In this document: positions 1,129 through 39,375 of the stretch, one piece after another | Numbering within the stretch: position 1 is the first letter of the stretch | Layout of the letters: every line of letters begins with the position of its first letter | Origin: a virus | Direction: 5' to 3' (one strand) | IMG/VR virus record: IMGVR_UViG_3300018080_005419 | DNA: 64,000 bases | Notes under the pieces: model-generated | The model's input: the letters and a program-made list of their open reading frames with translations, nothing else | What the model was told of the DNA's origin: nothing | Databases searched by the model: none | Translations under genes and position numbers: made by a program

Positions 1129-1311
1129 CTATTTTTTATCTACTTTCTTTTTGCACTTAACACAGTATTTAGTCTGATCTAAGACCTTGGTTCCACAATC
1201 AGGACACGGAAAGGTCTTAGCAGCAACTTCGATTCTTTGTCCAGTAAGATCTGACAAATACTGAATTGCTTCTTCTTCGCTGGCAAAAATAAGTTCTTTT
1301 TCTTCTGACAT
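1129..1311 (-). CDS. Leader-module protein with C-terminal zinc ribbon
   Basis: N-terminal LIFASEEEAIQYLSDLTGQRIEVAA module, then CPDC...CVKC; GAAGGGAG RBS. Confidence 0.8.
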   Translation of the reverse strand: MSEEKELIFASEEEAIQYLSDLTGQRIEVAAKTFPCPDCGTKVLDQTKYCVKCKKKVDKK

Positions 1312-1444
1312 TGCTTTAGCTCCCTTCTCAAAAATAAAAAAGACAAATACTAATAAAGGACAAAATATAAAGAAAATTAAAAGTTCTCTAATTTAATTTT
1401 ATAATTTTGCATATTATGTAGCAATTCTTATAAAGGAGAAAACT

Positions 1445-1729
1445 ATGCGTGATTTGATAACGTTAATACTGAGTCTTGCAAAATTCTTCTATTATCTATT
1501 TTGGCCTTTGATTAAATTATTTGAATTAACCCTTCCTTTTTGGATTTTTGTTTGGAAAATAGCTAGATATCTTAATCCATTTTTGTGGTGGTGCGCTTTG
1601 GTTCATGGTGTTGAATGGAGAATTGTCGGATATATGATGCCTTATGGAATTGGTGGAGGATATGATAGAGAAGGATATTATTGTCAAGAATGCGATAAAT
1701 TATATTGCGGGAGAGATTCGGAGAAATAA
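1445..1729 (+). CDS. Membrane protein with C-terminal CxxC motif
   Basis: AAGGAG RBS; hydrophobic aromatic N-terminal half; CQEC...C. Confidence 0.65.
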   Translation: MRDLITLILSLAKFFYYLFWPLIKLFELTLPFWIFVWKIARYLNPFLWWCALVHGVEWRIVGYMMPYGIGGGYDREGYYCQECDKLYCGRDSEK

Positions 1730-1730
1730 A

Positions 1731-1907
1731 ATGAGAATAGAATTTAAGAAGACTAACTGTGTTAAATGCGGCTCTGAAATATGGAAAATGTTTCCTTATA
1801 ATCAAGAAGAACTGAATAAAACTATTTGCAGTATTTGCGAAGAACCCAATAAAGAATTGCCACCTATTATCTTTAAAGGATATCGAAGCAATGTTAATGA
1901 AAAATAG
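1731..1907 (+). CDS. Zinc-ribbon protein
   Basis: ATG at 1731 directly after the previous stop; CVKC...CSIC. Confidence 0.65.
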   Translation: MRIEFKKTNCVKCGSEIWKMFPYNQEELNKTICSICEEPNKELPPIIFKGYRSNVNEK

Positions 1908-2071
1908 AGACATACAAAAAGAAGAGTGGATCAAAGATATGATTGTTAAACATATACAAAACAATCCAGGAATAGACCCTTTAGATATAGCAAACGATCT
2001 TGATATTCCTCTTATTCGGGCAGTCAATCTTTTGACATACTCCCACGACTTAAGATCGTGGGATTCTTGGC

Positions 2072-3226
2072 TTAAGCGATACTAGCTGTCCGAAAGGACA
2101 GTCTTACGGTATCTAGGCCAGCAGAAGATGCCCCTTCTGCATAAATATTAAAACTAGCGTTCCGATCTCTGTCTAATTCAGTTTTACAACTAGGGCATAT
2201 CCAACTTCTGTCTTTTAACGTTAATCCTTCATTCTTATACCCACATACATAGCATTGTTTAGTAGATGGAAAGAAGCGATTGATTTTATGCACTGTCTTA
2301 AGATATTCTTCGGCTTTAAAGCTCAAAATCTGCATAAACTGATAAAATCCTAAATCGCTTACTTTTCTTCCATATTGTTTTTGCAGCCATTTGATGTTTA
2401 AATCTTCGAAAAACATATAATCATAACTTCGAACTAAAGCTAAAGCTAGTTTAAAATGGAAATCTTTTCTTTTGTTAGTTATCTTTCTATGCATCCTAGC
2501 TAACTTCAATCTAGCTTTTTCTTTATTTCTACTTCCATCTTTCTTTTTAGACAAAGATCTGTTTAACTTCTTTATTCTTCTAATGTCCCTTTTAAAAAAC
2601 AAAGGGGATTTTATATCTTTGTAATCGCTAGATGTTAGAAAGGTTTTCAACCCAAAGTCAAATCCTGCGCTTTTACCCGTCATGAATTTGTCTTTTTCTG
2701 GGCTGTCTTCTAAGACTAACGATATACAAAGCCAAAGATCACCTAAACTATCTCTCTTTATCGTTACTGTTTTTACTTCTCCTTTCGTTTCTCTTGATTT
2801 AGAATACTTATAAATACTCTTCTTTATTTTGATTTTGTTTCCTTCCAGGAATTTATATCCTGCTTGTTTAAGCGTAAATGATTTGTATTTTTTAACCTTT
2901 TTAAACGAAGGAGGGCTACATTTTATTTTCTTTTTGTGCAGTTTAAAAAACAGCTTGTATGCTTTGTCTATACGTTCAGTTATATCTTGAACTGATTGAC
3001 TTGGAATAACCTTAAGATATTTAAATCTTTCTATATTGCTGTTTCTAAGTTTTTTAATATGCTTTTGCAGCTTGTTTTTATCAAGATATTTTCCGTAGAG
3101 TTTATAGTATTTTTTATGCAATGCTATGCAATGATTATACAAAATTCCTGTACAATCAATTGTCTGCATAAGAAAACAATTTCTCTTATGCTTATACAAT
3201 TTATATTTATACGTTCTTCTCTGCAT
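2072..3226 (-). CDS. tnpB: RNA-guided endonuclease TnpB
   Basis: HTH N-terminus; RuvC motifs GFDFG, FEDL, DRDRNA; Zn finger CYVC...CPSC. Confidence 0.95.
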   Translation of the reverse strand: MQRRTYKYKLYKHKRNCFLMQTIDCTGILYNHCIALHKKYYKLYGKYLDKNKLQKHIKKLRNSNIERFKYLKVIPSQSVQDITERIDKAYKLFFKLHKKKIKCSPPSFKKVKKYKSFTLKQAGYKFLEGNKIKIKKSIYKYSKSRETKGEVKTVTIKRDSLGDLWLCISLVLEDSPEKDKFMTGKSAGFDFGLKTFLTSSDYKDIKSPLFFKRDIRRIKKLNRSLSKKKDGSRNKEKARLKLARMHRKITNKRKDFHFKLALALVRSYDYMFFEDLNIKWLQKQYGRKVSDLGFYQFMQILSFKAEEYLKTVHKINRFFPSTKQCYVCGYKNEGLTLKDRSWICPSCKTELDRDRNASFNIYAEGASSAGLDTVRLSFRTASIA

Positions 3227-3229
3227 AAA

Positions 3230-3628
3230 TTATTTGTTTTTCTGATCGTCTATATACTTCTGAATTGTTTCTTCAGAAATATGTCCAACGGACTCACAAT
3301 AATAACTTCTTGTCCAAAGACAAGGAAGTCTGCTTTTTAAAGAATTAAACTCTTTTCTTAAATTTCTAGAAGAATATCCCTTTAATTGTTGAACTATAAA
3401 ATGAGGACTGTCAACAGGAGTAGCTTTTACAAAGAGATGAACATGTTCAGGCATAACTTCCATAGAAAGAATTTGAACACTTAGCTCTTTGGCTTTTTCT
3501 TTTAATAATTGTTTCAATCTTTTTTCAATATCATCAACAAAAACAGGTCTTCTATATTTAGAACACCAAATAAAATGATAGCCTATGTTGTAAACACAAG
3601 TTTTGCTAGTTGTCCATCTCTTTTCCAT
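3230..3628 (-). CDS. tnpA: Y1 HUH transposase TnpA
   Basis: YHFIWCSKYRR, PEHVHLF (HUH), LWTRSYYCESVG, YI (catalytic Tyr). Confidence 0.95.
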   Translation of the reverse strand: MEKRWTTSKTCVYNIGYHFIWCSKYRRPVFVDDIEKRLKQLLKEKAKELSVQILSMEVMPEHVHLFVKATPVDSPHFIVQQLKGYSSRNLRKEFNSLKSRLPCLWTRSYYCESVGHISEETIQKYIDDQKNK

Positions 3629-3786
3629 GTTGTTTATTTTATTCTATAAATAGTCATTTGTCAAATAAATATTTAATTAAATCTGTTCGCTCTCATCCCA
3701 CGACTAAAGTCGTGGGCTTTCCCGCTCAGTTGTCGTAAAAGATTTAATTCGCGAAGGAAAAATAGATTGGATAGAGGAGTAGAGCT

Positions 3787-4254
3787 ATGCCATATTTTTA
3801 TTTCCCAAGAGAAGAAAACTTAAGACCTCTAAGCAATATAGAAGTCATAACAATGCAAGCTTGTTTAGGCAAGTTAGACGATAAGAAATTACCTTGGTCA
3901 TACGAGATAGAAACTTATAAATTTAGATATTTTGAAGATAAGGGTATGACACTCGACAACGGAATTATGGGATATACGAGATTTTTCAGCAAAGATATTC
4001 TATTATCGCCAAATGTTGTTAAGGGACTGCTATGGACAGACAATCAAGGAATTCCAAATAATGAACAATCTATAAGCATAGTTGTCCATGAATTAACTCA
4101 TAGAAATCAAATGAAATGGTTAGGTGGGTTGCTGTGGCCGTTTTTAAATATGTTTGGAGTTGCTGATCTAACAATAGAAAAATGGGCACGAGAAAACGAA
4201 CAGTGTGCCCTTAATGATCTTGCTAAAATATATAGAGAAGAAAGAGAAGGTTAA
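3787..4254 (+). CDS. Zincin-like metallopeptidase-fold protein
   Basis: VVHELTH (HExxH) followed by a downstream Glu (EKWARENE). Confidence 0.55.
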   Translation: MPYFYFPREENLRPLSNIEVITMQACLGKLDDKKLPWSYEIETYKFRYFEDKGMTLDNGIMGYTRFFSKDILLSPNVVKGLLWTDNQGIPNNEQSISIVVHELTHRNQMKWLGGLLWPFLNMFGVADLTIEKWARENEQCALNDLAKIYREEREG

Positions 4255-4871
4255 GAAATAGGCAAATCAAGAGCTTTCCAGCCAGCTACCGGAATTCCTT
4301 CAACAGGGCTAATTCCCATCCCATATTTTAAAGTAACCACATTATATCCTAAAAGCCTTAAAAGAGTCATAGTTTGGCTTGCTGTATGTCCAACATAGCA
4401 AATTAATACAATGGTTTTATCTTTAGGTAATTTTTCTAGGTTTTCAGGCTTAAATAAATCTAACCAAAATATATTAATTGTTCCTTCAATATGTCCTTTT
4501 TGAAAATCATCTGGTTTTCGAATATCCAATAAGAAAAGATCATCGGTTTGGTCGTTATCTATTTTCTTTTTAAGATCTTCAGGAGTAATATAATTCCAAT
4601 TTTTGTCTACTTTGGATATGTATTGAGATATCTTATCTTCCATTTTATTAGTAGATTGAGCTTGATCTGTGGCTAGCTCATAAAAAACAGACTCAAGATC
4701 ATGCACATCATATCCATTTTCTTCTGCCCATTTATGAACTACTGGATCTTTTGGATTTGGATTATCTTGGAGAAATTTTTTAACCTCTTCTTTTGAAGGA
4801 GATTCCTTAGCAATTTTCAGTTTGCTAAGTTTTTCGGCAATTTTTGCAATTCTGTTTATATTTTTGTTCAT
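4251..4871 (-). CDS. Rhodanese-domain protein with RIA-type leader
   Basis: LLDIRKPDDFQKGHIEGTINI and VLICYVGHTAS active-site loop; N-terminus RIAKIAEKLSKLKIA. Confidence 0.85.
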   Translation of the reverse strand: MNKNINRIAKIAEKLSKLKIAKESPSKEEVKKFLQDNPNPKDPVVHKWAEENGYDVHDLESVFYELATDQAQSTNKMEDKISQYISKVDKNWNYITPEDLKKKIDNDQTDDLFLLDIRKPDDFQKGHIEGTINIFWLDLFKPENLEKLPKDKTIVLICYVGHTASQTMTLLRLLGYNVVTLKYGMGISPVEGIPVAGWKALDLPIS

Positions 4872-4887
4872 CTATGTTCTTAAAATA

Positions 4888-4920: not shown

Positions 4921-4943
4921 GAGAAAATATCTAAAAATTCCTC

Positions 4944-5257: not shown

Positions 5258-5725
5258 TCAATCCTTTTTTGGTCTGACAGCAATCGATATGTGAAATTCG
5301 TGATTGCCCTTCATCAGCGGAGTTAAACCGTATTTCTCCCGTAACTTCTCTAATTGTGGGCTTTTACATTGAATAAACCACACCTTTTCCATTTCGTCCC
5401 AACCTTCTGGATCACAAGACTCAACAGAAGAAATAGCATATTCAAATTCTTGCCCAACTTCTTCAATTGGACCTACTTTTTCTACTTCCTCATCCGTCAT
5501 TACTGAAATGTGAGGATCGTAGTCTGGTGGTTTTTCCATGTCTTCTTCGTAAATCGTTTCATATATATTATTTACAAAATCTTTAGGGACAGTTAAAATT
5601 GCATAACTTCCCTTTTTGTTTTGCACTTTTAATTTGCCCTTCATAGGAACTGCAGGATATTCAGTTACAGTATTTCCTGCAAGAACCATATTAGCTATTC
5701 GAATTATTCTTCTAAAATCGGACAT
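5258..5725 (-). CDS. 2H phosphoesterase-family protein with RIA-type leader
   Basis: Two HxS motifs (PHISV, FHISI) about 75 aa apart; N-terminus RRIIRIANMVLA. Confidence 0.7.
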   Translation of the reverse strand: MSDFRRIIRIANMVLAGNTVTEYPAVPMKGKLKVQNKKGSYAILTVPKDFVNNIYETIYEEDMEKPPDYDPHISVMTDEEVEKVGPIEEVGQEFEYAISSVESCDPEGWDEMEKVWFIQCKSPQLEKLREKYGLTPLMKGNHEFHISIAVRPKKD

Positions 5726-5727
5726 TT

Positions 5728-6144
5728 TTAGCCTTTAAGAAGTTCATTATATTTGGCTTCTGCTTGTGCCATACTATCAAAGTAATAAGCTTCTTTTGGT
5801 TTCCATTTATCATCTTTGAGAACATAAACTTCTGTCTCAAACATATCGTCTTCTCTTTCGATTACAACCTTTCTTGTTTCTGAAGTTTGAGTCTCTTTGA
5901 CGTATTTCTCTTCACCCTCGCTAGATTCTTCCTCTTCTTTGCTGGATTCTTCTTCCTTTGTCTCCTCTTCCTCTTTTTCTTCAGAAGTTTTAGAAAAAGG
6001 ACACTCATCTGTCTCAGAGTTTGGTCCTGTACCATCTGGAATACCTGGGCCCAACTTTGAACCAGCAATATAAACCTTTTGTTCTAACAAATCAGCTAAG
6101 TATTGTAGAGCTTCTTTTTCGGTGGCAAATCGTAGCTCATTCAT
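5728..6144 (-). CDS. Leader-module acidic protein
   Basis: LRFATEKEALQYLADLLEQKVYIAG; GPGIPDGTGP; Glu-rich linker. Confidence 0.8.
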   Translation of the reverse strand: MNELRFATEKEALQYLADLLEQKVYIAGSKLGPGIPDGTGPNSETDECPFSKTSEEKEEEETKEEESSKEEEESSEGEEKYVKETQTSETRKVVIEREDDMFETEVYVLKDDKWKPKEAYYFDSMAQAEAKYNELLKG

Positions 6145-6255: not shown

Positions 6256-7647
6256 TTATTTAATAATTATTCGTTTGCCTGTTAGATTGGATAAATATTG
6301 TAGTGCATCGTTAATAGAAGCCATTTCAAACATTTTTTGTTGCCCTTTGGACTCGGCTAATTCTCTAAAAGGATCAGGATATTTTTCTTTAAGTCTTTGT
6401 TTGTCAGGATGTTTGCTAAGTTCATCTATGTTTATTTTTTGATTTGTCATTAATTTGAATTCTAATGGATCTTTAACTAAATCTTCTGCATAATCAGGAC
6501 CATATTCATTAAAAATATATTGTAAAGTTGGAATATCTTCTTTAAATCCTTCAGTCAAAAGTTTAACAATTGGTTTCATTTCACTTTCTGTCATTTTTGT
6601 ATTGCCAGCATTATTAAATTCAATACCCTGTCCTGTTCCTGGAATTGGTATTTGCATATATTCACCATCATCATCATAATAAATTTGTTCCAGATTTTCT
6701 TTTATTTCGCTTTCGTCAGGCTCATATTCTTCTATTAGTTCATCTTTAACCTCATCTACTTCTTCAGGATGATCTTCTATCCATTCCTCAAAAGTATATT
6801 CTTCCTCTTCTCCTTCTTCTAGTTCTGCTTTTTCACTCTCTCTGTATTCTAAATAATCATCATATCTGTCTTGTAATTTTTGATCAATATCATATTCATC
6901 AGGTTCGTAATGTTCTTTCAACCTCTCAATAACTCCATCTTCATAATCATATCCATAGTTATTTAACCATTCATCAAAATCTATTTTTTCTGTTTCTAGC
7001 ATTCCTTCTACATTCAAAAGTGCATATAATTTATTCCCTTTAGTAATAAGATAAAATGGAGGATCATATCTACGAAACCAATCTTCATCTCGAACACACC
7101 ATTTACCAGCTTGAATCGTATCAAAAGTCTCATCATAATCATCTATTCTAAACAATCTATATTTACCGTTAGATGATAATAACTTTTCATCCATATGACT
7201 AAATAAATCTTCTAGTCTGGGACGTTTATTTTTAAGATTTTCCATAAAATTAGATAGTCCCCTCAAGCCTCTTTCTATAATGTGTTTCATTTTATTTTCG
7301 TTCATTACTTCTGGAACTTGTTTTTGCTTCATAGACATGTATTCTTTTAAAATGGGCTTAGCTTCATCAAGTTCTTCTGGTTTAACTTTATCCTTTTTAA
7401 TCCATTCAATAAGCTGTTTTATAAATTTACCGTCAATTCTTGTATTTTCATCTAACTTTGCAGGTGGGTTTTTAACAGTGGGGTCAGCTTGTATAATTCT
7501 TAAAAATAAGTCGTCAGAATATTTGTCTTCTAACATCTTTTGGCCAAGTTCCATTGTGAATTTCTTGGCAATAATAATTCTACTATCAGTTAATTCTGCT
7601 AGATATTGTATAGCATCAAATTCAGAAGAAAATCTTAATCTTGACAT
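6256..7647 (-). CDS. Acidic protein with leader module at both termini and a 'KWCV' domain
   Basis: N-terminal LRFSSEFDAIQYLAELTDSRIIIA; C-terminal MASINDALQYLSNLTGKRIIIK; paralogous to 11642-13267. Confidence 0.85.
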   Translation of the reverse strand: MSRLRFSSEFDAIQYLAELTDSRIIIAKKFTMELGQKMLEDKYSDDLFLRIIQADPTVKNPPAKLDENTRIDGKFIKQLIEWIKKDKVKPEELDEAKPILKEYMSMKQKQVPEVMNENKMKHIIERGLRGLSNFMENLKNKRPRLEDLFSHMDEKLLSSNGKYRLFRIDDYDETFDTIQAGKWCVRDEDWFRRYDPPFYLITKGNKLYALLNVEGMLETEKIDFDEWLNNYGYDYEDGVIERLKEHYEPDEYDIDQKLQDRYDDYLEYRESEKAELEEGEEEEYTFEEWIEDHPEEVDEVKDELIEEYEPDESEIKENLEQIYYDDDGEYMQIPIPGTGQGIEFNNAGNTKMTESEMKPIVKLLTEGFKEDIPTLQYIFNEYGPDYAEDLVKDPLEFKLMTNQKINIDELSKHPDKQRLKEKYPDPFRELAESKGQQKMFEMASINDALQYLSNLTGKRIIIK

Positions 7648-10388: not shown

Positions 10389-11228
10389 ATGCCTAGTCGT
10401 ATATATAGAATAGCCAAAAGACTTATTGTTTCGGCAGCATTAACCGGCATTACAGATCCACGCCAATTATTTGAAGAACTGTCAGGAAGCGATATAGTAT
10501 TCTTTGATGTAGAAACAACAGGTTTAGATCAACACGAAAAACAAATAATCGAAATTGCAGCTATTCGTGTAGATGGTAGTACATTAAGAGAAAAAGACAA
10601 GTTACATAAAAAGATAAAGCTCACCCAAAAAACTCTAAAACAAATTCAAGAACAAAAAGAAAATCCCTCAACTCTCAAAAAAGGAGAATGGGGCGTAGAA
10701 AAAGTATTAGAATATACCAGATATAATAAGCTGAATCTACCCGAAGAAGAAGAAATAAAAGTCCTAGAGGAATTTAAGGAGTTCTGTGAAAAAAGCAATG
10801 CATATTTAGTGGCACATAATGCTAAATTTGATTTAAAAATGATAGGAACAAGAATCGGTAAAATTAAGAACCTCAAAGTCTATGATACAATGATGTTTGC
10901 CCGATTTTTCTTCATTCCTTCTTTAACTGCGCTATCAAAAGCAGGAGACGAAGAAGCCACCGATCTTCTTGAGAAAATGAAAACGTCAAAAGGAAAAGTG
11001 AGTTCTGGGCTTGTTTATTTAGGAAAAGGGTTAGGCATAGATGTTTCACAAGCCCATAGTGCTTTAGCCGATGTACAAACTACTATCAAGGTTTTTAAGG
11101 GAATTGTCGATCATTTTGAAAATAAGGCAGAGAGTTTAGAATCAGAAGAATATGAGAAGGGGAGACAAAAAGCAATTATGAAAGAAAGGTTCTACAAACA
11201 ATTAGATAAGAAGAAAAAGAAGCGTTAG
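10389..11228 (+). CDS. DEDDh 3'-5' exonuclease (DnaQ-like) with RIA-type leader
   Basis: FFDVETTG, AHNAKFD, HSALAD motifs; N-terminus RIYRIAKRLIVSAA. Confidence 0.9.
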   Translation: MPSRIYRIAKRLIVSAALTGITDPRQLFEELSGSDIVFFDVETTGLDQHEKQIIEIAAIRVDGSTLREKDKLHKKIKLTQKTLKQIQEQKENPSTLKKGEWGVEKVLEYTRYNKLNLPEEEEIKVLEEFKEFCEKSNAYLVAHNAKFDLKMIGTRIGKIKNLKVYDTMMFARFFFIPSLTALSKAGDEEATDLLEKMKTSKGKVSSGLVYLGKGLGIDVSQAHSALADVQTTIKVFKGIVDHFENKAESLESEEYEKGRQKAIMKERFYKQLDKKKKKR

Positions 11229-11638
11229 TATTTTGACTCGTACACTTTTTCAACAATCATTACTGGAATTTTATCTGCCCCGAGAGCTTTTGCTGCTGTT
11301 GCTCTATGATGTCCTTCTTGTCCTTTTCTGGCATAATCCAAATAAAGCATTGGAAATCTGTCGCCATTTTGCATATCTTCTATGTATTTTTGAACTAATT
11401 TTTGATCAAGTCTGTGCTCCATGCTTTGAGGATTAGATCCAAAAAGATCTTGAACCTTTTGTATATAATCATCGGGGCTCATCCATTCAATTTTAAATTT
11501 TCTATTCTTTTTGTCTTTGAAATATTCTGGCAGTTTCATCATATCGTCATAGTCAGTTTGATTGGTCGTATCTGTTTTCCAATTGATTTTTGTTGTACTA
11601 CTAATTAAAAGATTAGCAATTCTAAGCGTTCTTCTCAT
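11225..11638 (-). CDS. ParB/sulfiredoxin-like solo domain with RIA-type leader
   Basis: KYIEDMQNGDRFPMLYL...QEGHHRATAAKALG..IPVMIV. Confidence 0.7.
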   Translation of the reverse strand: MRRTLRIANLLISSTTKINWKTDTTNQTDYDDMMKLPEYFKDKKNRKFKIEWMSPDDYIQKVQDLFGSNPQSMEHRLDQKLVQKYIEDMQNGDRFPMLYLDYARKGQEGHHRATAAKALGADKIPVMIVEKVYESKY

Positions 11639-11641: not shown

Positions 11642-13267
11642 TTATTCCACAGGCACAGATTCAATCCCACCTTCCTTAACCATCTCATAGAACTTCCTTT
11701 TTCCTGCCAATCCTGAAAATAGCTTTCTATTAATATCGATAGGATGCATATAGGCCGTTCCTAATTTGTCTAAAGCATGCATAAATTCATCTTCATTTTG
11801 AGCTTCTTCTACAAGTTCAGCAAGCTTTTTCAGAGATGCTTCTAGTTTGCTTGTTTTAGGAGCTTTTGGATTTGATGGTTCTAAAAAACTTTGAGAACTA
11901 GGAGCACTAACATCTCTTTCCATGATTTTTTGCATAGCTTTAGAGACATCGATTGTAGGTGTACTTATTTTAATACGTTTTCCTGTTAAATCAGCTAAAT
12001 ATTGAATTGCTTTATCTACACTGGAAAATAGAACTTGTTGACCGTAATGCTCTTTTAGCTCTTTGAAATATTTAGGATAAGATTTTTCAAGATATTTGAG
12101 TCTTTTCTTGCTTAACTTTCCTAATGTGCCCTTTTGAAGCATTGTATTATGATATATAGTTCTTTCAATGTCGTCGCCTAAAAGAAATTGAATATCCTTC
12201 CAGGGAGTGTTGTTTGCTACTCTTTCAACATTAATATAAATGCTCCAAGATCCATCATAATCTTGTTCCCATTCCCAATATAAGCTGTTATCTTCAGCTA
12301 CTTCTTCAAAAAGCTCGAAAAGATCTTTTGCGCCTATATCTCCTATATCTAATTCTTCATCATACCCTTCTTGCATATCTTCTACTTTATCTTCAAACTT
12401 ATTCTCAAGCGCTTTAACATAATCATCCTGTGCCCAACTATCCCATGCATCTCTCTCATAATCTCTTTGTTGTTCATAAGGAGGCTCATTACTTCTATAA
12501 TTTTCATATGCATTAGATCTTTCAAATGCTCTCTCTAAATCTAACTTTTCTATTAAAGGCATTAGTTCGTCTATTTCATCGGCTTCTATAGGATCATTTG
12601 TGACATTATTAAACATTTCATCACTAGGACTAAATAGAGCATAATAGCTTCTATTTGGTTTTGTGAACAGCCATAGGGGTTTATAGCCTTCATAATTATC
12701 TTGTTCATTTACACACCATTTAGTTTGATGTGCGAATAATGGTTGTCCCTCTTCTTCCCAACTTCCATCAATTAAATAAGCGTGATATCCATTTAAAACC
12801 AAGTCGGGAGTTTTAAGTATTTGTTCTCTCTTATCGTTTGCCAATTCTTCTTCTGTGTCTTCAATAAAGCTAATGAGATCTGCACCCTTTTGGAAATCCT
12901 TTAACTTTTTAGATGTTTTGCCTTTTCCTCTTAGATTGTTTAGCTTTCTTATTGCATCTTTAATTTCTTCTTTTCTATAAACATTAGACATATATGGAGG
13001 ATTATCAAAATACCACTCTAAAAGAATATGAATAGATTTAACACTCTTCTTTAAATTGCCATCAAATTTTGGATCTATACGAGCAATTTCAACGATTTCT
13101 TGTTGTACTCTATGATCTTCCCAATTTTTAGATATACTCACGCGCTTTCTAAATCTTTCTACTAATTCAGGCATTAGGTCTTCAAGAGATTTAGCAATAA
13201 GAATCCGGCTACCTGTTAAATTAGCTAGATATTGAAAAGCCAAATTAGCATTGGAAAATTTTAGCAT
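11642..13267 (-). CDS. Large acidic protein with N-terminal and internal leader modules and a 'KWCV' domain
   Basis: MLKFSNANLAFQYLANLTGSRILIA; internal LFSSVDKAIQYLADLTGKRIKIS; TKWCV...LWLFTK...YYALF. Confidence 0.85.
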   Translation of the reverse strand: MLKFSNANLAFQYLANLTGSRILIAKSLEDLMPELVERFRKRVSISKNWEDHRVQQEIVEIARIDPKFDGNLKKSVKSIHILLEWYFDNPPYMSNVYRKEEIKDAIRKLNNLRGKGKTSKKLKDFQKGADLISFIEDTEEELANDKREQILKTPDLVLNGYHAYLIDGSWEEEGQPLFAHQTKWCVNEQDNYEGYKPLWLFTKPNRSYYALFSPSDEMFNNVTNDPIEADEIDELMPLIEKLDLERAFERSNAYENYRSNEPPYEQQRDYERDAWDSWAQDDYVKALENKFEDKVEDMQEGYDEELDIGDIGAKDLFELFEEVAEDNSLYWEWEQDYDGSWSIYINVERVANNTPWKDIQFLLGDDIERTIYHNTMLQKGTLGKLSKKRLKYLEKSYPKYFKELKEHYGQQVLFSSVDKAIQYLADLTGKRIKISTPTIDVSKAMQKIMERDVSAPSSQSFLEPSNPKAPKTSKLEASLKKLAELVEEAQNEDEFMHALDKLGTAYMHPIDINRKLFSGLAGKRKFYEMVKEGGIESVPVE

Positions 13268-13725
13268 TATTCTTCCTCGTCTGGATCTGGAGCTAAATTT
13301 TTTCCAGCTTTAATTGAATCGAAAATAATCTTACCTTCTTCAGGAGACTCACCTTTAGGATGGAAGCTAAGGGTTTTCTCTTCTCCACGTTCAAAAAATG
13401 CTCTGTCGTGAATTGGGTCTACTGTACTGTACCAAACGCCTTCATGAAATTGACTGCTTGATGGTTCTGCTGCACCTTCTTTCAACATATAATCAATCAT
13501 CTCATATAAAGAATCAAATTCCATATCTTTATGCTCAAATCCAGTTTCGGCATAATCTCCTGCTCTTGCTGATTCTTCAGTTACAATCTGATATGTGACA
13601 TCAAGTTTAAAATCTTGGAAAAGAGTCTGCTGTCCATCGTATGCAGCAATAATAACTTTCTTACCCGTCATATCAGAAAGGTGTTGAATTGCTTCTTGTT
13701 CACTGCTAAAATTGAGTTCACGCAT
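13267..13725 (-). CDS. Leader-module acidic protein
   Basis: LNFSSEQEAIQHLSDMTGKKVIIAA; AAGGAG RBS. Confidence 0.85.
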   Translation of the reverse strand: MRELNFSSEQEAIQHLSDMTGKKVIIAAYDGQQTLFQDFKLDVTYQIVTEESARAGDYAETGFEHKDMEFDSLYEMIDYMLKEGAAEPSSSQFHEGVWYSTVDPIHDRAFFERGEEKTLSFHPKGESPEEGKIIFDSIKAGKNLAPDPDEEE

Positions 13726-14076: not shown

Positions 14077-14148
14077 GCGCCCGTCGTCCAATGGTTAGGG
14101 CTCAGATCTCTAAAATCTGTTATAGGAGTTCGATTCTCCTCGGGCGCA
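14077..14148 (+). tRNA. Amber suppressor tRNA (anticodon CUA), Glu-like scaffold
   Basis: Complete cloverleaf: acceptor GCGCCCG/CGGGCGC, D arm GTCC-AATGGTTA-GGGC, anticodon arm CAGAT-CTCTAAA-ATCTG (CTA at 14110-14112), 4-nt variable loop, T arm AGGAG-TTCGATT-CTCCT, discriminator A; followed by CTA, not CCA. Confidence 0.92.
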
Positions 14149-14188
14149 CTAATATTATCAAAGAATCAAACTTTTTCAAATAGTTTTC

Positions 14189-16710: not shown

Positions 16711-16866
16711 ATGGGTAAGACAAGAAGACATGACGAATTTTTGGAAGATGATTTTGATAACAACAGAAAAAACAAGAAAAAGAAAAATCAAACAATAAGA
16801 GAAAACAGAAAAAAAGCAAGGGAAAGAAGAGAAAGGGGTGACTATGCAACAATCTTAGAACAATGA
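16711..16866 (+). CDS. Small basic protein MGKTRRHDEF... (51 aa, absent from ORF track)
   Basis: ATG 16711, TGA 16864-16866; K/R-rich. Confidence 0.55.
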   Translation: MGKTRRHDEFLEDDFDNNRKNKKKKNQTIRENRKKARERRERGDYATILEQ

Positions 16867-17526
16867 CTCTTGTTTATCACTAATATCGGGCGCTTCAACA
16901 ACCCAAAATGTGACATCAAGATCGTTATTCCAAGCTAAATTACTACGTCTATTTCCCGAGAATCCATAATAGGTTTTCGGGAATTTTATTAAGATAGGTG
17001 CTTCTAACTCTATTTTTATTTTTTCATTTAATCTATCTCTAAGTTGTGTATATCCTTCTCTATATGTTGGATCTTGTATTTCTTCCTGGAAATCTTTAGG
17101 ATCCTTTGTAATGTTCATAGCAGGATTGACACCAAATTTACTTATTTTTTGGAGCTTACCGTTACTTAAGAAATCAATTAATTCTTTATCTGTTTTAAAA
17201 GAATAACCCATTTTAGCAAAGAAACGCCTAGTAGGATCGTTTTCAAAATACTCACCTGCCTCATCCGCAAAATCAGGCTTTATCCACTTGATTTCTTTTT
17301 GTGGAGGATTGAGTTGATTTGAGACTTCTTTTGTTGAAACTCCATATTCTTTAGCGGCTTGTGCTATTGCTACTCCATACGGTTTACCTTTTTTTTTAAC
17401 TAAAAATCTAACTCTATCTGCTGCCTTTTCTATTTCTCTTGAGGCAGCAACAATAATACGCTTACCTGTCAAATCAGATAAGTATTGGATAGCTTCTGAT
17501 GTACTAGAAAATTTAATTTGCTGCAT
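16855..17526 (-). CDS. Leader-module protein with HTH-like segment and ParB/Srx-like C-terminal domain
   Basis: Likely start MQQIKFSSTSEAIQYLSDLTGKRIIVAA at 17526; APILIK...FSGNRRS; ends QESLF. Confidence 0.8.
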   Translation of the reverse strand: MQQIKFSSTSEAIQYLSDLTGKRIIVAASREIEKAADRVRFLVKKKGKPYGVAIAQAAKEYGVSTKEVSNQLNPPQKEIKWIKPDFADEAGEYFENDPTRRFFAKMGYSFKTDKELIDFLSNGKLQKISKFGVNPAMNITKDPKDFQEEIQDPTYREGYTQLRDRLNEKIKIELEAPILIKFPKTYYGFSGNRRSNLAWNNDLDVTFWVVEAPDISDKQESLF

Positions 17527-20401: not shown

Positions 20402-20737
20402 TTATTCGTGCTCAATTCCAGCTTCTTCTTCCATTTTCTTTAATCTGTCATAATAATCTTTAATTTCCCAGAGATGATCTAATGAAATTTCCTTAGCAAT
20501 ATTGCTATCGTTTGTGTGTTCCATTTCAACCTTAATGCCCATAGTTAATTGTTTTTCAATCTCTTCAACGGAGACACCATGCTTATCTGCAATGTCTTGA
20601 ACTGTCTTACTTTCTGCAAAACCTCCTGGCAATAAGTCAGATGGTTCGTCAGCGGCAATCTTAATAGTCTTGCCTGTTAGATCTGCAAGAAATTGAATTG
20701 CTTCATCAAAACTTCTGAATGTTTTATGATTTGTCAC
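20402..20737 (-). CDS. Leader-module protein with DUF5661-like domain
   Basis: KTFRSFDEAIQFLADLTGKTIKIAA; QLTMGIKVEMEHT...EISLDHLWEIKDYYDRL. Confidence 0.8.
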   Translation of the reverse strand: MTNHKTFRSFDEAIQFLADLTGKTIKIAADEPSDLLPGGFAESKTVQDIADKHGVSVEEIEKQLTMGIKVEMEHTNDSNIAKEISLDHLWEIKDYYDRLKKMEEEAGIEHE

Positions 20738-23506: not shown

Positions 23507-23944
23507 CTATTCGTCTATTAGAATTTTCTTACCTGTAAAATCAGCAAGATATTGAATAGCTTCTTCTTCAGAGGAGAACTTTAATTCGCCTTCCTTAACT
23601 TGAGTTTCGATTTCTCCAGCTAATATATATTGTTCAAATACATCTGCCATAACTTCTGCTGTTGCTTCCATTTCTTCTTCGGTAAGATCAATTTCTTTTT
23701 CAGCAAGGATTTTAACCAATTCTTTTGCAAGCTTAATGGCAACCATTTTAAAATCAGTCATTGCTACTTCACTGCCCTTCCATTTTTTAACTTGTTCCTT
23801 TACAAGATCGCCAATAGCATCCATGACAGGTTTTCTTTTATCACCCAATTTTAAGTCTGCATTTGTAGCAGCAATTTTAATCAATTTAGCAATACGGAGA
23901 CTATTAATTTGGTGATCCGATGCAATTTTAATTCTGAGGGACAT
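23507..23944 (-). CDS. Protein with N-terminal KIA/RIA repeats and C-terminal leader module
   Basis: MSLRIKIASDHQINSLRIAKLIKIAA...ELKFSSEEEAIQYLADFTGKKILIDE; AAGGAG RBS. Confidence 0.8.
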   Translation of the reverse strand: MSLRIKIASDHQINSLRIAKLIKIAATNADLKLGDKRKPVMDAIGDLVKEQVKKWKGSEVAMTDFKMVAIKLAKELVKILAEKEIDLTEEEMEATAEVMADVFEQYILAGEIETQVKEGELKFSSEEEAIQYLADFTGKKILIDE

Positions 23945-27542: not shown

Positions 27543-28391
27543 ATGAAAATGCAATTTGTTGGAGTTGGATCTGCCTTTACTACTCAGGAATATTATCAGT
27601 CAAATGTTTTAGTTATTGCAGAAAGTGGAAAAAAGTTGCTGATTGATTGTGGTAGCGATGCTAGATTTGCCCTACAAGAATTAAATATTAAGCCTGACGA
27701 TTTAGATGGTGCTTATGTTAGTCATTTGCATGCTGATCATGTTGGAGGCTTAGAATGGTTGGCTTTTTGTACGTATTTTAATCCCAACGCAGAACGACCA
27801 AAACTATATTGCAATTCTGAATTAATGCCTCAGTTGTGGGAACAGGCATTAAGAGGAGGTTTAGAGTCAATACAAGGCAAAGTGGTGACTCTAACTGAAT
27901 ATTTTGAGTGTGTCCCAATTCCTCAAAATGAATCTTTTTATTGGGAAAATATTGAATTTACTCCTGTTCAAACGGTTCATGTTATGGCAGGCTACTACAT
28001 CAAATATTCTTATGGGCTTTTGATTCAAGAAGAGTCTACAGAATCAATAGCATACGATGAACCATATGATGCACTAGGAAATGGATGTATCAATTCTTAT
28101 AGGAGAGTAGAAAGAAAGGTCGAAAAACCCGTTGTATTTTTCACAACAGATACGCAATTTTGTCCTAATCAAATTAAGGATTTTTATAATAGGGCGGATA
28201 TTATTTTTCATGATTGCGAAACGTTTCCTTTTAAGAGTGGAGTTCATGCCCACTATGAAGATTTAAAAACATTAGATAAAGAGACAAAAGAAAAGATGTG
28301 GCTCTACCATTATCAGCCAAATCCATCACAAGATGCAAAAGAGGATGGATTTGCTGGATTTGTTCAGAAGGGTCAAGTGTTTGAAATTTGA
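27543..28391 (+). CDS. Metallo-beta-lactamase-fold hydrolase, Apyc1-like
   Basis: VGVGSAF, LLIDCG, SHLHADHVGGLE, LWEQALRGGL, TVHV, TTDT, FHDC, GVHA, LYHY. Confidence 0.85.
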   Translation: MKMQFVGVGSAFTTQEYYQSNVLVIAESGKKLLIDCGSDARFALQELNIKPDDLDGAYVSHLHADHVGGLEWLAFCTYFNPNAERPKLYCNSELMPQLWEQALRGGLESIQGKVVTLTEYFECVPIPQNESFYWENIEFTPVQTVHVMAGYYIKYSYGLLIQEESTESIAYDEPYDALGNGCINSYRRVERKVEKPVVFFTTDTQFCPNQIKDFYNRADIIFHDCETFPFKSGVHAHYEDLKTLDKETKEKMWLYHYQPNPSQDAKEDGFAGFVQKGQVFEI

Positions 28392-28430: not shown

Positions 28431-28892
28431 ATGGAATATTATATAGTTTCGAGCTTTGATCCGGAATGCTATAATCCAACTATTTTAAAAGGCCAAAAGG
28501 TAGAAAATTGGGAAGAATATTGCAATTCTCTCATGCCAGAAGCAATCAAACTAGCAATTAAGAAATATAGCAAAGGGAACAAAGATTTTGATGGAGCAAT
28601 AAACCATCTTTCTTTGAGAATAACAGAAGAAAGAATGTCAGAAGCTATGATAGAAGTATTGAAAAAGAAGGGATATGAATTAGTTAAATTTCAAGAAAAA
28701 TCGTTTGGCTGGAGGGGGGATTTTTTCGATATTAATGAAATTGAATTGCACAATCTCAGGGCAGAACTCGAAAACAACGAATCATATATAGAAAGAAAAA
28801 ATGATTATGAGCTTAAGAAAGATACAATCGATTATCTTCAAGAGAAAAATGCCAAAATTAAAACTAAAATAAAAGAACTAGAAGAAAATTAA
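28431..28892 (+). CDS. Hypothetical protein
   Basis: GGAGG RBS; coiled-coil C-terminus. Confidence 0.75.
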   Translation: MEYYIVSSFDPECYNPTILKGQKVENWEEYCNSLMPEAIKLAIKKYSKGNKDFDGAINHLSLRITEERMSEAMIEVLKKKGYELVKFQEKSFGWRGDFFDINEIELHNLRAELENNESYIERKNDYELKKDTIDYLQEKNAKIKTKIKELEEN

Positions 28893-29215
28893 AATTTCTT
28901 TGATTCTTCTCTAAATGCCCTACTATCTTTAAGCCAGCCTTGAATTGCTTGGTGATAATCCTTCATGCTAGATTCTTGTAACTTAACAATATCATCCGGC
29001 ACACCCACTTCTAATGTTTCAAATTCATCGCCTTTTTGGATAGCTACAGTACTTCCTGGTTTGATTCTTACTTTTATTTTTTTGCCACTCTCCATTGTGA
29101 CATTATAGAGATAGCCTTCTTCTGTATCGCTTGAATGGCTTACACTTTTAACTAAGTTTTCTGCAATAAGCATTTGAGCGATGACAATTTTTCTACGCAT
29201 GATGTTATTCTCCAA
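28889..29215 (-). CDS. Hypothetical protein with RIA-like leader
   Basis: MRRKIVIAQMLIAE near the N-terminus. Confidence 0.7.
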   Translation of the reverse strand: MENNIMRRKIVIAQMLIAENLVKSVSHSSDTEEGYLYNVTMESGKKIKVRIKPGSTVAIQKGDEFETLEVGVPDDIVKLQESSMKDYHQAIQGWLKDSRAFREESKKF

Positions 29216-29218: not shown

Positions 29219-29404
29219 TTATTCTGGTGGATTTTGCCAACGTGGTTCCAAAATGCCTCCGCCAATATCAACTACTGTTAGAATTTGTCCTTCATTACCA
29301 GGATGAAGGCGAATCCAATCTTTACCGTCATAATAAAGAAGGTCGCCAATTAAACCTGCATCTGGTCCATCATAATCGCCAACTTCGGTTTTTTCGGAAG
29401 CCAT
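29219..29404 (-). CDS. Small protein resembling a single phage fibre/adhesin repeat
   Basis: GDLLYYDGKDWIRLHPGNEGQILTV...P.W. Confidence 0.65.
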   Translation of the reverse strand: MASEKTEVGDYDGPDAGLIGDLLYYDGKDWIRLHPGNEGQILTVVDIGGGILEPRWQNPPE

Positions 29405-29580
29405 TAGTTAGCTCCTCTATCGCTTTTTAAAGACTTGTTAGCTCCTCTTGTGCGATCTACCATATGTTCAAAGCCTTGGCTAATAATAGCAATTTTAACA
29501 GGTTTTCCTAAAGTATCACACAAATATTGAATAGCATCCTCTTCAGATTCAAAAATTAGAGAGTCTTCTGTTTCTTGCAT
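29404..29580 (-). CDS. 58-aa protein consisting mostly of the leader module (absent from ORF track)
   Basis: MQETEDSLIFESEEDAIQYLCDTLGKPVKIAIISQ...; AAGGAG RBS; stop overlaps the next ATG. Confidence 0.75.
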   Translation of the reverse strand: MQETEDSLIFESEEDAIQYLCDTLGKPVKIAIISQGFEHMVDRTRGANKSLKSDRGAN

Positions 29581-29737: not shown

Positions 29738-30709
29738 ATGCTACAATTTAAAACAGCCAATCAAGCGCTTCAAACACTTGCCGATCTAAAACAGTGTCGC
29801 ATCAAAATTGCAGACATTGATATTCCAAAAAGAAAGTTGGGGAATACAGGATTGGAGGTGGGCATATTTTCTTTAGGTGGACAAGGAGCATTAGAGCATC
29901 AAAGAGACAAAGAAGAAATGGCAGAGATTATCACCAGAGCATATGAGCTTGGGGTAAATTATTTCGACACTTCTCCAATTTATGGTCCTTCTGAAGATTA
30001 TTATGGACATGCAATTCCCAGCTTTAGAAATGATATTATTTTAGCAACAAAGAGCGATAAAAGAGATGGGGATGGAGCTTTAAAAGACATAGAAAAATCC
30101 TTAGAAAGACTGAAAACGGATTGGATAGATGTATGGCAAATTCATCATGTAGATAATATGGAAGAAGTAGAACAAATATTTGGACCTGGAGGGGCATTAG
30201 AGGCCTTTAAACAAATGAAGGATGAAGGTGTTGTTAAAAATATAGGAATTACTGGGCATGAAGATCCTGAAGTATTAGTGGAAATGCTTAACAGATTCCC
30301 ATTCGATACCGTTCTTTGTGTAGCCAATGCTGCTGATGTAAATGTAGATCCTTCTTTTGAATCAACGCTATATCCTGTGGCAAATGAAATGAATGTTGGA
30401 ATTATAGGGATGAAGGTATTTGCTCAGGGTTACATTTTTCATCCAGATGGTATTAAAACAACATGGGAGCCACTTTATTATGCAATGTCGCAACCAATTT
30501 CTACTGTTATTGTTGGATGCGATAGTGTGGCCCAATTAGAAGAGAATGTTGCACTAGCTAAGGGTTTCTATAAATTAAGCCCTGAACAATTAGAAGAAAT
30601 TCAAAATCAAACTAAATCATATACAAAGAGAGGAGCTTTTTTTAGGAGTGAGTTCGGAGGGTATAGTTCTCAGGAAAAGCTCAAAAAATTAGTTGTTTTT
30701 GAAAAATAA
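29738..30709 (+). CDS. Aldo/keto reductase with N-terminal leader module
   Basis: MLQFKTANQALQTLADLKQCRIKIA fused to PKRKLGNTG...GVNYFDTSPIYG...LATK...DVWQIH...NIGITGH. Confidence 0.92.
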   Translation: MLQFKTANQALQTLADLKQCRIKIADIDIPKRKLGNTGLEVGIFSLGGQGALEHQRDKEEMAEIITRAYELGVNYFDTSPIYGPSEDYYGHAIPSFRNDIILATKSDKRDGDGALKDIEKSLERLKTDWIDVWQIHHVDNMEEVEQIFGPGGALEAFKQMKDEGVVKNIGITGHEDPEVLVEMLNRFPFDTVLCVANAADVNVDPSFESTLYPVANEMNVGIIGMKVFAQGYIFHPDGIKTTWEPLYYAMSQPISTVIVGCDSVAQLEENVALAKGFYKLSPEQLEEIQNQTKSYTKRGAFFRSEFGGYSSQEKLKKLVVFEK

Positions 30710-35368: not shown

Positions 35369-35386
35369 TCAGGATTACAAACAATC

Positions 35387-36076: not shown

Positions 36077-36179
36077 ATTCAACGATTGTCAAATCTTCAT
36101 TTTCAAGCTCTTCTTCTATAATTTCCAAAACCTTATTCCAATCGCCACCTGCTAAACCACAACCTATTATCGTTTTCAT
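36063..36179 (-). pseudogene. 38-aa C-terminal fragment of a macro domain
   Basis: MKTIIGCGLAGGDWNKVLEIIEEELENEDLTIVEF; ATG overlaps the upstream TGA; ends in TAG. Confidence 0.65.
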
Positions 36180-37195: not shown

Positions 37196-37246
37196 TGTTT
37201 TTTCCTTGTTAATTATGTCGCAAGATAGCGGGTAATGTTTTAATTA

Positions 37247-37555
37247 TTATATAGCGGGAACTCCATGTTGGTATCCGTAAATAACGCCAAACTTTGTTGT
37301 GAATCTTTCCTGGATCATTTGCGTATAGCCAGCAGTAGTAGGAGCAGAATATAGATCCTTATAATACAGACGTTTGTAGTTTTCTCCTTCTCCATCAGGA
37401 AGTGTAGAAGGTATATCCAAATACCGAATAATTTGATTTCGATAATCAGCGTCAGCCTCAGCAATAGGTACATTTACATATGGATTTGGGTCATTTGCTC
37501 GAATATCGTTTGGAACAGTAACAGTAAAATCATAATCTTGTGTATAAACAGGCAT
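37247..37555 (-). CDS. Hypothetical protein
   Basis: AAGGAGG RBS; Tyr/Pro-rich. Confidence 0.75.
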   Translation of the reverse strand: MPVYTQDYDFTVTVPNDIRANDPNPYVNVPIAEADADYRNQIIRYLDIPSTLPDGEGENYKRLYYKDLYSAPTTAGYTQMIQERFTTKFGVIYGYQHGVPAI

Positions 37556-37577
37556 AATTTGACCTCCTTAAATTGTA

Positions 37578-39035
37578 CTACTCTATGGCCGTTAAGTCCA
37601 GTAAATGTCTGCTCTTTCCATTATAAAAGCAACCATCACTGTCAATATCAAACTTCCTTAACGGCACTGTCATAATATGCCCAGTTATCAAAGTTTTTTC
37701 AAGATCGTCAAAATGCTTCTCCCAAACAAAGAAAGATATGTCGTCAAAGTCGTCTGAAAATTCCACTATCCACATAGGATTCCCAGACTTTTTGGACACT
37801 GTTTTCTTAATTTTTCCTATAACTCCAAGGAAAACGCCCTCTTCCGTGTTCTTCAATTCTTCTATCTTTGAGATTCCATATTCGTCTAATTTATCGTATG
37901 TTTCCATAGGTATTAACGAATGGCTTAATGAAATTCCTAATAATTCTTCTTCTGCGCTTTTTCTTTCTTCTTCTCCAAAATGCACATACTCATAAGTTTT
38001 TTCTTTCCTTATTTCTCCTAAAAATTGATTAATCATAAATTCACGGTCGCCAAAACAATCAAAAGCGCCAGATTTAATCAGAGCCATAATTTTAGATTTA
38101 TTACACTTTCTTTTTTCAACCTTATCGTAAAAATCTTTGAGGGAGTTGAACGGCCTTTTAGTAAGAACTTCATTGGCACCAGCAGGACCTAAATTCTTAA
38201 TCATACTCAGGCCCCATCGAATAGTGTTTCCTTCTAAGGTGAATTTGTTTTCAGAATTGTTTACATCAGGGGGAATAATAGAAATACCCATCTTTCTAGC
38301 ATATTGAATATATTTTTTAAGAATGCTGCCACCTCTCTTATCCTTTTTGGCAATATCTGTAAAGTTTAAGAGAGCAGCCATAAATTGTATAGGGAAATGA
38401 ACTTTAAGGAATAATGACCAATATGCTACCATTGCATAAGATGCTGCGTGGCTTAAGTTGAAACCGTAGCCCCCATAATTTTTAAGAGTTTCAACAAAAG
38501 TATCTAATTGATCTTGCGTTATAAGTCCGTCTTTGACAGATTTTTGCGAACGTTTTTTAAAGTCTTCTAATAAAACTTGTAGTTTCTTCATTGTTTCAGC
38601 ATTATCTTTTCCCTTTGCTAATCCTTTTCTTAGAGCATTAGCTTCAGCACCAGAAAATCCTGCTAAACGTCTAGCAATTGCCATTGCACTTTCTTGGTAG
38701 ATTGGGAGATTGTAGGATCTATCCAGAACATCAGCAACAGCAGGAATCGACTCCCATCTTTCATATCCCTTCTTTCTCTTACCGTAAGTAACATGTAAAT
38801 TACCACTCAAAGGATCTGGTCTTCCCAAAGTAGTAGCAGCATACATATCAGCGAATGAATCAATCCCTATCTCTTTAATAATCCCAATAGCAACATCTGT
38901 CTCAAATTGAAAAATGCCAAATACATCTAATTTGTTCAAACGCTTAAAGCATTCTTGATCATCATCTGGAACTTTAGCCATATCAAGTGGTTCTGGAGAT
39001 ACATTTTCTACAATACCAGGGTCAATTTTAAGCAT
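37578..39035 (-). CDS. dnaE: DNA polymerase III alpha, C-terminal fragment
   Basis: GIFQFE, LGRP, PIYQE, LRKG..K, YGFNLSHAASY, PPDVN.S, IRWGLSMIKNLG, OB fold; own AAAGGA RBS. Confidence 0.92.
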   Translation of the reverse strand: MLKIDPGIVENVSPEPLDMAKVPDDDQECFKRLNKLDVFGIFQFETDVAIGIIKEIGIDSFADMYAATTLGRPDPLSGNLHVTYGKRKKGYERWESIPAVADVLDRSYNLPIYQESAMAIARRLAGFSGAEANALRKGLAKGKDNAETMKKLQVLLEDFKKRSQKSVKDGLITQDQLDTFVETLKNYGGYGFNLSHAASYAMVAYWSLFLKVHFPIQFMAALLNFTDIAKKDKRGGSILKKYIQYARKMGISIIPPDVNNSENKFTLEGNTIRWGLSMIKNLGPAGANEVLTKRPFNSLKDFYDKVEKRKCNKSKIMALIKSGAFDCFGDREFMINQFLGEIRKEKTYEYVHFGEEERKSAEEELLGISLSHSLIPMETYDKLDEYGISKIEELKNTEEGVFLGVIGKIKKTVSKKSGNPMWIVEFSDDFDDISFFVWEKHFDDLEKTLITGHIMTVPLRKFDIDSDGCFYNGKSRHLLDLTAIE

Positions 39036-39105
39036 TTCTCTATTTTCCTTTATATTTTTCCTAACAAGTGTGAATCTATTTTTACTTCAAACGGAGAATA
39101 ATAAA

Positions 39106-39375
39106 ATGGAAGAAAGACAAGATGAAGTTATTTTTCAAACCGCAGAAGAAGCTTTCCAAAAACTTGCCGATTTAACAGGCAAGAAAATAATGGTTCCTGA
39201 TAAGGCTGAACCAACAGTAGCAGAAGAAAATCAAGAAGAAGAAGCTGTTACTGGAGGCACAACAAAAGAATTAGCCGACAAGCTTAGAGAACAAGGTGAA
39301 AAATACGGAGAAGCAGCTGACAAATTAGAAGACATTGATTCTGAAATTGAATCTTTCGGAACAGCAATTGAATAG
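39106..39375 (+). CDS. Leader-module acidic protein lying antisense between the dnaE fragments
   Basis: GGAG RBS, ATG 39106; VIFQTAEEAFQKLADLTGKKIMV. Confidence 0.8.
   Translation: MEERQDEVIFQTAEEAFQKLADLTGKKIMVPDKAEPTVAEENQEEEAVTGGTTKELADKLREQGEKYGEAADKLEDIDSEIESFGTAIE

Follow-up and report, generated by a model that had tools for sequence, protein, structure and literature searches.

A short portable peptide module on unrelated genes of an uncultured huge phage may act as a self-complementing docking tag

Why should a virus attach one and the same short peptide to a series of otherwise unrelated proteins? The question is raised by a stretch of 64,000 nucleotides from the IMG/VR virus record IMGVR_UViG_3300018080_005419, here called the window, which spans positions 32019-96018 of the record, a metagenomic contig of 280,011 bp from an uncultured phage with a genome of about 280 kb. 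An initial annotation of the window had counted 13 copies of the peptide (hereafter the module) on 11 genes and had read it as a packaging or compartment-targeting tag. In this study, we show that the module behaves as a portable tag on unrelated cargo with a strict preference for the ends of the chain, that it is gained, lost and moved on one and the same cargo, and that it is confined to one clade of uncultured phages. Moreover, we tentatively favour the reading, which falls a little short of being probable, that it is a docking tag which loads cargo into the prohead interior by module-module pairing, seeded by module proteins encoded in the head operon. The contig DNA read consisted of the window and a further stretch, L102 (together 85 kb of the 280 kb).

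The set of copies in the window is sharply delimited. A hidden Markov model (HMM) built from the window's own copies found 13 domains in 11 open reading frames (ORFs) with independent E-values of 1e-14 to 6e-18, the next match lying at E ~0.7, and a further HMM, trained on 194 modules found in database representatives, recovered the same 13 at 26.5-58.6 bits, with the next match at 5.4 bits; the initial count is thus exactly borne out. Neither scan found a copy in the window beyond 39.4 kb. Ten copies are N-terminal and begin a few residues after the initiator methionine, two are C-terminal (genes 6256-7647 and 23507-23944) and one is internal (gene 11642-13267). Alanine, glutamine and leucine residues are invariant in all 13, and among 74 N-terminal examples F, A, Q and L are invariant, with L, T, G and the alanine that follows the second predicted strand (strand 2) conserved in at least 90%. 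In the DNA alignment of the copies, mean column identity is 66%, with serine encoded by TCN or AGY and leucine by TTR or CTN, and because of this low identity and these differing codon families it is the peptide on which selection acts, in agreement with the protein-level conservation that had been claimed at the outset.

Module genes start at ATG 17526 (TTG 17643 in the ORF list), at ATG 39106 and at GTG 20737, and an AAGGAG-type ribosome-binding site stands ahead of most of them. Nine of the 11 are on the minus strand, as first reported; the region itself, described then as dominated by the plus strand, is so just mildly (38 plus versus 31 minus genes). Apart from the insertion sequence (IS) element, no minus-strand block from 4 to 30 kb lacks a module gene. 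The word TTTTGAAT, which stands ahead of several module genes, is no commoner than expected by chance (21 versus 19.9) and sigma-70-like sites are at chance level too (88 versus 83), which leaves no evidence of a shared or late promoter; late expression of the module genes, as initially proposed, is unsupported.

The portability of the module is clearest among relatives. A profile search of 1.84 billion representative proteins returned 434 clusters at E <=0.001, and the best 150 of these comprised 147 true carriers with 194 modules and three repeat-protein false positives. The conserved phenylalanine falls at residues 3-11 in 108 of the 194 modules from the 147 representatives, in 22 the protein ends 0-3 residues past strand 2, which makes these copies C-terminal, and about 64 are internal. 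Proline is enriched 1.66-fold in the 15 residues after the module. By BLASTP, 80 of 150 cargoes are singletons, and Pfam assigns to the cargoes Ank, Rubrerythrin/EncFtn/Ferritin, NUDIX, RelA_SpoT, DUF3175, ChaB and other families. Orthologues of the protein of gene 16855-17526, 45-59% identical, exist both with and without the module; the cargo of gene 13267-13725, which has its module in front, is 69% identical to a relative's protein with the module behind the cargo, and a cultured Pseudomonas phage has a module-free homologue of the same cargo. Relatives also have tandem arrays of four to five small genes that each open with the module. Small proteins made up of module-spacer-module alone exist too, and the architecture with a module at both ends is conserved in the family of the 463-residue protein of gene 6256-7647. 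The choice between Y and H at one position is more uniform within a locus than by chance (p = 0.003). Alanine follows strand 2 in 101 of 108 N-terminal copies (94%), 51 of 64 internal copies (80%) and 5 of 22 C-terminal copies (23%), and the residues that precede C-terminal copies show no conservation.

A degenerate DNA pattern able to recover 42% of true modules gave 21 matches in 185,579 species genomes, all by chance, and none in IMG/VR; in the JGI metagenomes it gave 52 true loci with 123 modules, nearly all of 31-44% G+C and from a handful of samples. When two module proteins were compared by tblastn with 50,697 phage records, cultured phages proved to lack the module. The module has no significant match in Pfam, NUMOD1 included, or among PDB sequences, and Foldseek found no match to a two-module model; when the module or the two-module model was compared with Pfam and PDB sequences and by Foldseek and VIA-align, the best results were a Z of 3.7, ETF-alpha at E 0.014 over 17 residues and phrog_11035 at E 0.005. 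To our knowledge no such tag has been described before, and the module is an undescribed domain whose mode of action is apparently self-complementary.

The latter point comes from predicted structures. In AlphaFold models, the module of about 26 residues (26-30 amino acids) is a strand, a 12-residue helix, a T-G-K turn and a second strand. P0048, a protein consisting of a module, a 42-residue proline-rich linker and another module, is modelled with both modules as strand-helix-strand units (DSSP strands E2-5/E22-25 and E71-74/E91-94) at a predicted local distance difference test score (pLDDT) of 93-94; its predicted template modelling score (pTM) of 0.53 is about the fraction of residues that lie in the two modules, as expected for one rigid body. 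In the model of P0051 (pLDDT 88), a 58-residue helix separates the modules, and each has its helix and no strands. Because strands form solely where two modules can meet, the models suggest that modules pair with each other. The invariant surface residues (Q, Y/H, D and T-G-K) suggest a specific interface, and the module-spacer-module proteins and the two-ended architecture of the 463-residue family fit a cross-linking role.

An indirect link to the phage head is provided by the L102 stretch. P0010, a protein with two modules, is encoded on the same contig near 246 kb, at L102:10001-11233, in a series of genes on one strand: a 443-residue protein, P0010, a 164-residue module protein, the head-maturation protease, proteins of 218, 467 and 169 residues, and the major head protein. 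The first four genes, from the 443-residue protein to the protease, are separated by gaps of 11-17 nucleotides. The protease, directly downstream of P0010 and the 164-residue module gene, matches phrog_18299 (E 2.5e-8), and the major head protein, 5.1 kb downstream of the 164-residue gene, matches phrog_2522 (E 9e-54) and phage G gp27 (PDB 6wkk, E 6.9e-60). Judged by its sequence, this genome fits group 3.2 of the jumbo phages, the phage G-like group (PMC7824862), because its major head protein matches gp27 and its polymerase is of the Pol III type. The protease gene (L102:11758-13866, contig ~240-246 kb) is split by an intein with a homing-endonuclease domain, and the major head protein gene (L102:16804-17775) is followed by a homing endonuclease gene. 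The 218-residue protein (L102:13939-14595), a candidate scaffold, and the 467-residue protein (L102:14664-16067) have in common an N-terminal leader of about 16 residues, M-[SA]-R-x-R-[IL]-T-...-A-A-D, which is loosely like the module end, not significantly so by HMM, and might serve both proteins for processing or targeting. Elsewhere, P0023, of a family with N- and C-terminal modules, sits in the one-directional operon L104, for which PDB and phage searches did not confirm a tail-tube identity.

A second link is the cargo itself. A half-ferritin recurs as cargo in relatives, and its best matches among solved proteins are all encapsulated ferritins. Residues 10-95 of L081:1443-1964 match EncFtn (5n5e, 6.6e-14), the Pyrococcus furiosus ferritin-shell fusion (2e0z, 1.2e-12) and Myxococcus xanthus EncC (2.5e-10), and the module begins at residue 93, exactly where the ferritin domain ends. 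Encapsulated ferritin is a known cargo of HK97-fold encapsulin shells, with a linker and targeting peptide at the end of the ferritin domain (PMC11202242). We also observed another common element, a C-terminal tail of about 55 residues ending in ...D-E-G-L-E-P-D-Y-I-F, on differing cargoes (ferritin-like and others) and always together with the module (L081:1443-1964, L097:3578-4072, L068:805-1380, L063:125-700 and L102:11246-11740).

On the reading we favour, the module would be a portable tag by which proteins dock to one another, with a flexible linker between tag and cargo. A lone module could not complete its sheet, and two would complement each other into a unit of four strands and two helices. 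Clients with a single tag (the reductase, DUF5661, zinc ribbon and ferritin-like proteins, and others) would latch onto multi-tag struts, in which a coiled coil or acidic domain carries a module at either end, and this docking would build up a mixed protein body. Its likeliest destination would be the interior of the HK97-fold prohead, as a core or as a body of cargo or ejection proteins, and the module proteins encoded beside the prohead protease would seed it. What we infer here is that separate proteins pair, that they are loaded into the head and that the alanine after strand 2 may be a site of proteolytic release. A bolder form of the proposal, which we hold to be possible and rather unlikely, is that a clade of phage G-like huge phages uses its capsid as an encapsulin-like container, in which a self-complementing split-domain tag on about 30 genes per genome builds an internal strut and client body that includes encapsulated ferritin and several enzymes.

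Several points weigh against loading into the head. The pairing was derived from the DSSP strings and pTM of two monomer models, the proteins with ferritin cargo come from relatives and not from this contig, and the phage is uncultured. Most module genes, in the window as in relatives, lie among accessory, anti-defence and nucleotide-metabolism genes, and with about 30 module genes per genome the presence of two in the head operon could be chance. Furthermore, the neighbours of 443, 218, 467 and 169 residues in that operon have no assigned role, and PHROGs annotate no module-bearing representative as a virion protein.

The same gene neighbourhoods would be in keeping with a docking tag that serves a non-virion assembly, such as a cytoplasmic factory, a condensate, an enzyme raft or hetero-oligomers formed during infection. 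The accessory and metabolic genes around most module genes include Apyc1, caspase, 2H-SAK, rhodanese, RNase T, gyrase, ribonucleotide reductase and ThyX, the cargo is rich in enzymes, and multivalent struts would serve a scaffold-client network wherever it formed. However, two module genes lie inside the head operon beside the protease, and the ferritin cargo is from a family known as cargo of closed HK97-fold shells (PMC11202242). We regard such a non-virion assembly as unlikely.

Less likely still, and doubtful in our opinion, is a strict T4-type leader, that is, an N-terminal capsid-targeting propeptide which binds the scaffold core through a separate receptor and is then cut off by the prohead protease behind I-x-I-A, the cleavage site that the initial annotation had suggested. 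It would explain why the alanine after strand 2 is kept just where the chain continues and why the protease gene adjoins module genes, and the arrays of diverse small tagged genes do resemble T4 internal-protein loci (PMC3012670). However, C-terminal copies lack such a site on their cargo side and cleavage at I-x-I-A cannot account for them, the module is a folded unit of 26 residues rather than a peptide of about 10, and module-spacer-module struts make little sense if both modules are discarded. Moreover, the known phage prohead proteases of T4 and phiKZ type cleave behind glutamate, and the module has no glutamate at the putative site. What stands of the packaging or targeting tag first proposed is a portable terminal tag on unrelated cargo, with the protease/capsid operon and the ferritin cargo as its indirect link to the head; the likeness to T4 is functional at most.

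A nucleic-acid-binding motif of the NUMOD1 or helix-turn-helix (HTH) kind, which would take the cargo to DNA or RNA and which the initial annotation had named as a finding that would refute its proposal, is largely refuted and in our judgement very improbable. One module gave Arm-DNA-bind_4 at E 0.033, and we take the pattern F-x-S-x-x-E-A...L to be superficially like the first helix of NUMOD1 or an excisionase-type HTH. Against this, the 13 modules matched no NUMOD1 or HTH family at E <=10 and no PDB sequence, the models have a single 12-residue helix per module flanked by strands and not two helices, the consensus is about neutral to acidic, and pure module-linker-module proteins exist. Finally, a DNA-level recombination handle or recent-duplication scar that spreads gene cassettes and has no protein function would agree with the tandem arrays of swapped cargo and the uniform Y/H choice within loci and is nevertheless scarcely credible, since the DNA is just 66% identical with split synonymous families, yet 74 proteins agree without exception at four residues, the copies keep their reading frame and their exact register at the terminus, and the peptide is modelled as a confident fold.

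The individual copies in the window illustrate the range of cargo. At the left end, the 60-residue product of gene 1129-1311 (minus strand) carries an N-terminal module (1210..1299, 58.6 bits) on a CxxC...CxxC zinc ribbon, a cargo named initially for which matches are present and all below the Pfam cut-offs, and the 138-residue product of gene 5728-6144 (minus) has an acidic low-complexity middle behind its N-terminal module (6052..6141, 44.5 bits). The 463-residue protein of gene 6256-7647 (minus) has an N-terminal module (7555..7644, 44.0 bits), a conserved W-C-V central domain, a very acidic stretch and a C-terminal module (6259..6336, 42.0 bits), and it ends one residue past strand 2. Its 541-residue paralogue, from gene 11642-13267 (minus), has an N-terminal module (13181..13267, 43.2 bits) and an internal one at residues 410-438 (11951..12040, 46.6 bits), followed by a tail of about 100 residues. 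The central-domain family of these two proteins is rare, with 3 homologues, and a PcfJ-like identity for it was rejected (hhalign probability 0.1).

N-terminal modules are also found, all on the minus strand, in the products of genes 13267-13725 (13633..13722, 53.6 bits; 152 residues), 16855-17526 (17434..17523, 55.0 bits; 223 residues), 20402-20737 (20642..20731, 43.3 bits; 111 residues) and 29404-29580 (29476..29565, 37.2 bits; 58 residues). Among these, the DUF5661 cargo of gene 20402-20737 proposed in the initial annotation was confirmed (PF18905, E 6.9e-17); the ParB-like domain assigned to gene 16855-17526 has as its sole basis a sulfiredoxin match at E 0.046, and this cargo is possibly ParB/Srx-like. 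The 145-residue product of gene 23507-23944 (minus) has a C-terminal module (23510..23590, 54.3 bits) and three short [IL]-[RK]-I-A motifs at its N-terminus. The two plus-strand genes both have N-terminal copies: gene 29738-30709 encodes a 323-residue protein with the most divergent copy (29738..29824, 26.5 bits), in which the expected aldo/keto reductase was readily recognised (PF00248, E 5.5e-36), and gene 39106-39375 encodes an 89-residue acidic coil (39121..39210, 40.6 bits). The latter gene lies exactly between the minus-strand halves of a split dnaE (window 37578-41976; halves by Pfam).

A shorter N-terminal motif, approximately R-[IL]-x-[RK]-I-A, opens six window proteins without a full N-terminal module, encoded by genes 4251-4871 (minus), 5258-5725 (minus), 10389-11228 (plus), 11225-11638 (minus), 23507-23944 (minus) and 28889-29200 (minus), and five of these six genes share minus-strand blocks with module genes. 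The six proteins include a rhodanese, a 2H-SAK phosphoesterase and an RNase T-like exonuclease. The motif is also present in relatives (L083:1984-2547, L044:6091-6597 and L053:1586-2104). There are 9 matches in the first 25 residues versus 0.42 expected, for a pattern picked after seeing the data. This motif may represent the tag in its minimal version, or else an amphipathic helix that has nothing to do with it.

The remaining content of the window includes the split DnaE, RecA, an actin-like protein, a TnpB/IS605 element and an Apyc1-like protein, as well as a caspase, a trypsin-like protease and an amber-suppressor tRNA. The IS605-type element (TnpB and Y1 transposase; 2072-3628, minus) and the Apyc1-like anti-Pycsar protein of metallo-beta-lactamase fold (27543-28391, plus) are in the accessory region. 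The gene of the caspase-family (C14) protease (17629-18564, plus) is divergent from module gene 16855-17526, and that of the trypsin-like protease (18998-19633, plus) lies near it. A K-[RK] pair directly before strand 2 is conserved in the module, and the caspase and trypsin-like proteases could cut there. The amber-suppressor tRNA (14077-14149) has the anticodon CUA and was typed as Pyl by ARAGORN, and TAG is the stop codon of 17 of the 94 called window genes, three module genes among them. Amber read-through of module genes was considered and set aside: 3 of the 11 end in TAG, yet they would gain merely 3-9 residues.

The loading of the many non-structural head proteins of huge phages is largely unexplained outside T4 and the phiKZ/SPN3US group. 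Here, one recognisable tag marks a whole candidate cargo set, and the sequence by itself allows that set to be listed. Short as it is, the tag can be used at the front or the back of a protein and seems to require no more than a second copy of itself, so that it is possibly useful for loading or assembly. A tagged encapsulated ferritin tangibly connects phage capsids with encapsulin nanocompartments, themselves believed to descend from capsids of the HK97 fold. If the capsid did serve as an encapsulin-like container, viruses would have their own counterpart to the loading of encapsulin cargo, possibly its ancestral form, as well as a new way to assemble the internal or ejection proteins of a phage; if the tag acts in the cytoplasm, it would still be a new viral system for the co-localisation of enzymes.

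How does the module compare with known targeting systems? The capsid-targeting sequence (CTS) of T4 has about 10 residues, is strictly N-terminal and is removed by gp21 after L/I-x-E. This conserved terminal tag is the sole shared part of diverse, fast-evolving and clustered proteins, and in T4 nothing more than the tag is needed to bring a foreign protein into the core of the prohead (PMC3012670). The module is likewise the shared part of diverse proteins, with 80 singletons among 150 cargoes and with tandem arrays of tagged genes. In contrast, the module is a strand-helix-strand unit of 26-30 residues without sequence similarity to the CTS, it occurs at N-termini, at C-termini (22 of 194) and between domains (about 64 internal), and it ends in I-x-I-A with no conserved glutamate. 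Encapsulin targeting likewise uses a terminal tag on diverse cargo, including the same ferritin family, and in L081:1443-1964 the module takes the position of the targeting peptide at the end of an encapsulated-ferritin-type domain (PMC11202242). Its strand I-x-I loosely recalls the minimal L-x-I/L-x consensus of encapsulins. Encapsulin peptides, however, are short, disordered and mostly C-terminal, follow L(F)-x-V(I)-x-x-L(I) and bind a cleft of the shell P-domain (PMC11202242), whereas the module is longer, mostly N-terminal, predicted to fold into an ordered unit with a differing consensus and seems to pair with another module. The shell would here be a capsid filled with DNA, that of a phage G-like virus; in its head operon, the major head protein gene lies about 5 kb downstream of two module genes.

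Coat-binding domains of scaffolding proteins, such as the helix-turn-helix at the C-terminus of P22 gp8, dockerin-cohesin pairs and the docking domains of polyketide synthases (PKS) are small terminal domains that mediate assembly, and their fusion to a cargo relocates that cargo. The module is like them as a small terminal domain on elongated helical proteins, and a PKS class 2 docking-domain complex gave a weak structural match (Z 2.3). It resembles none of them in sequence or, to any significant degree, in fold, and those systems use a distinct receptor and ligand whereas the module looks self-complementary. The encapsulation peptides of bacterial microcompartments (BMC) resemble the module in that these short amphipathic helices, attached through a linker, sit at one or the other terminus or between domains and target enzymes to a protein shell; unlike the module they are helix only and need BMC shell proteins, and no BMC domain was present among the ORFs scanned in 85 kb of the 280-kb contig. 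In function the module resembles the T4 CTS and the encapsulin peptides; it lacks the features of sequence and structure by which either is defined.

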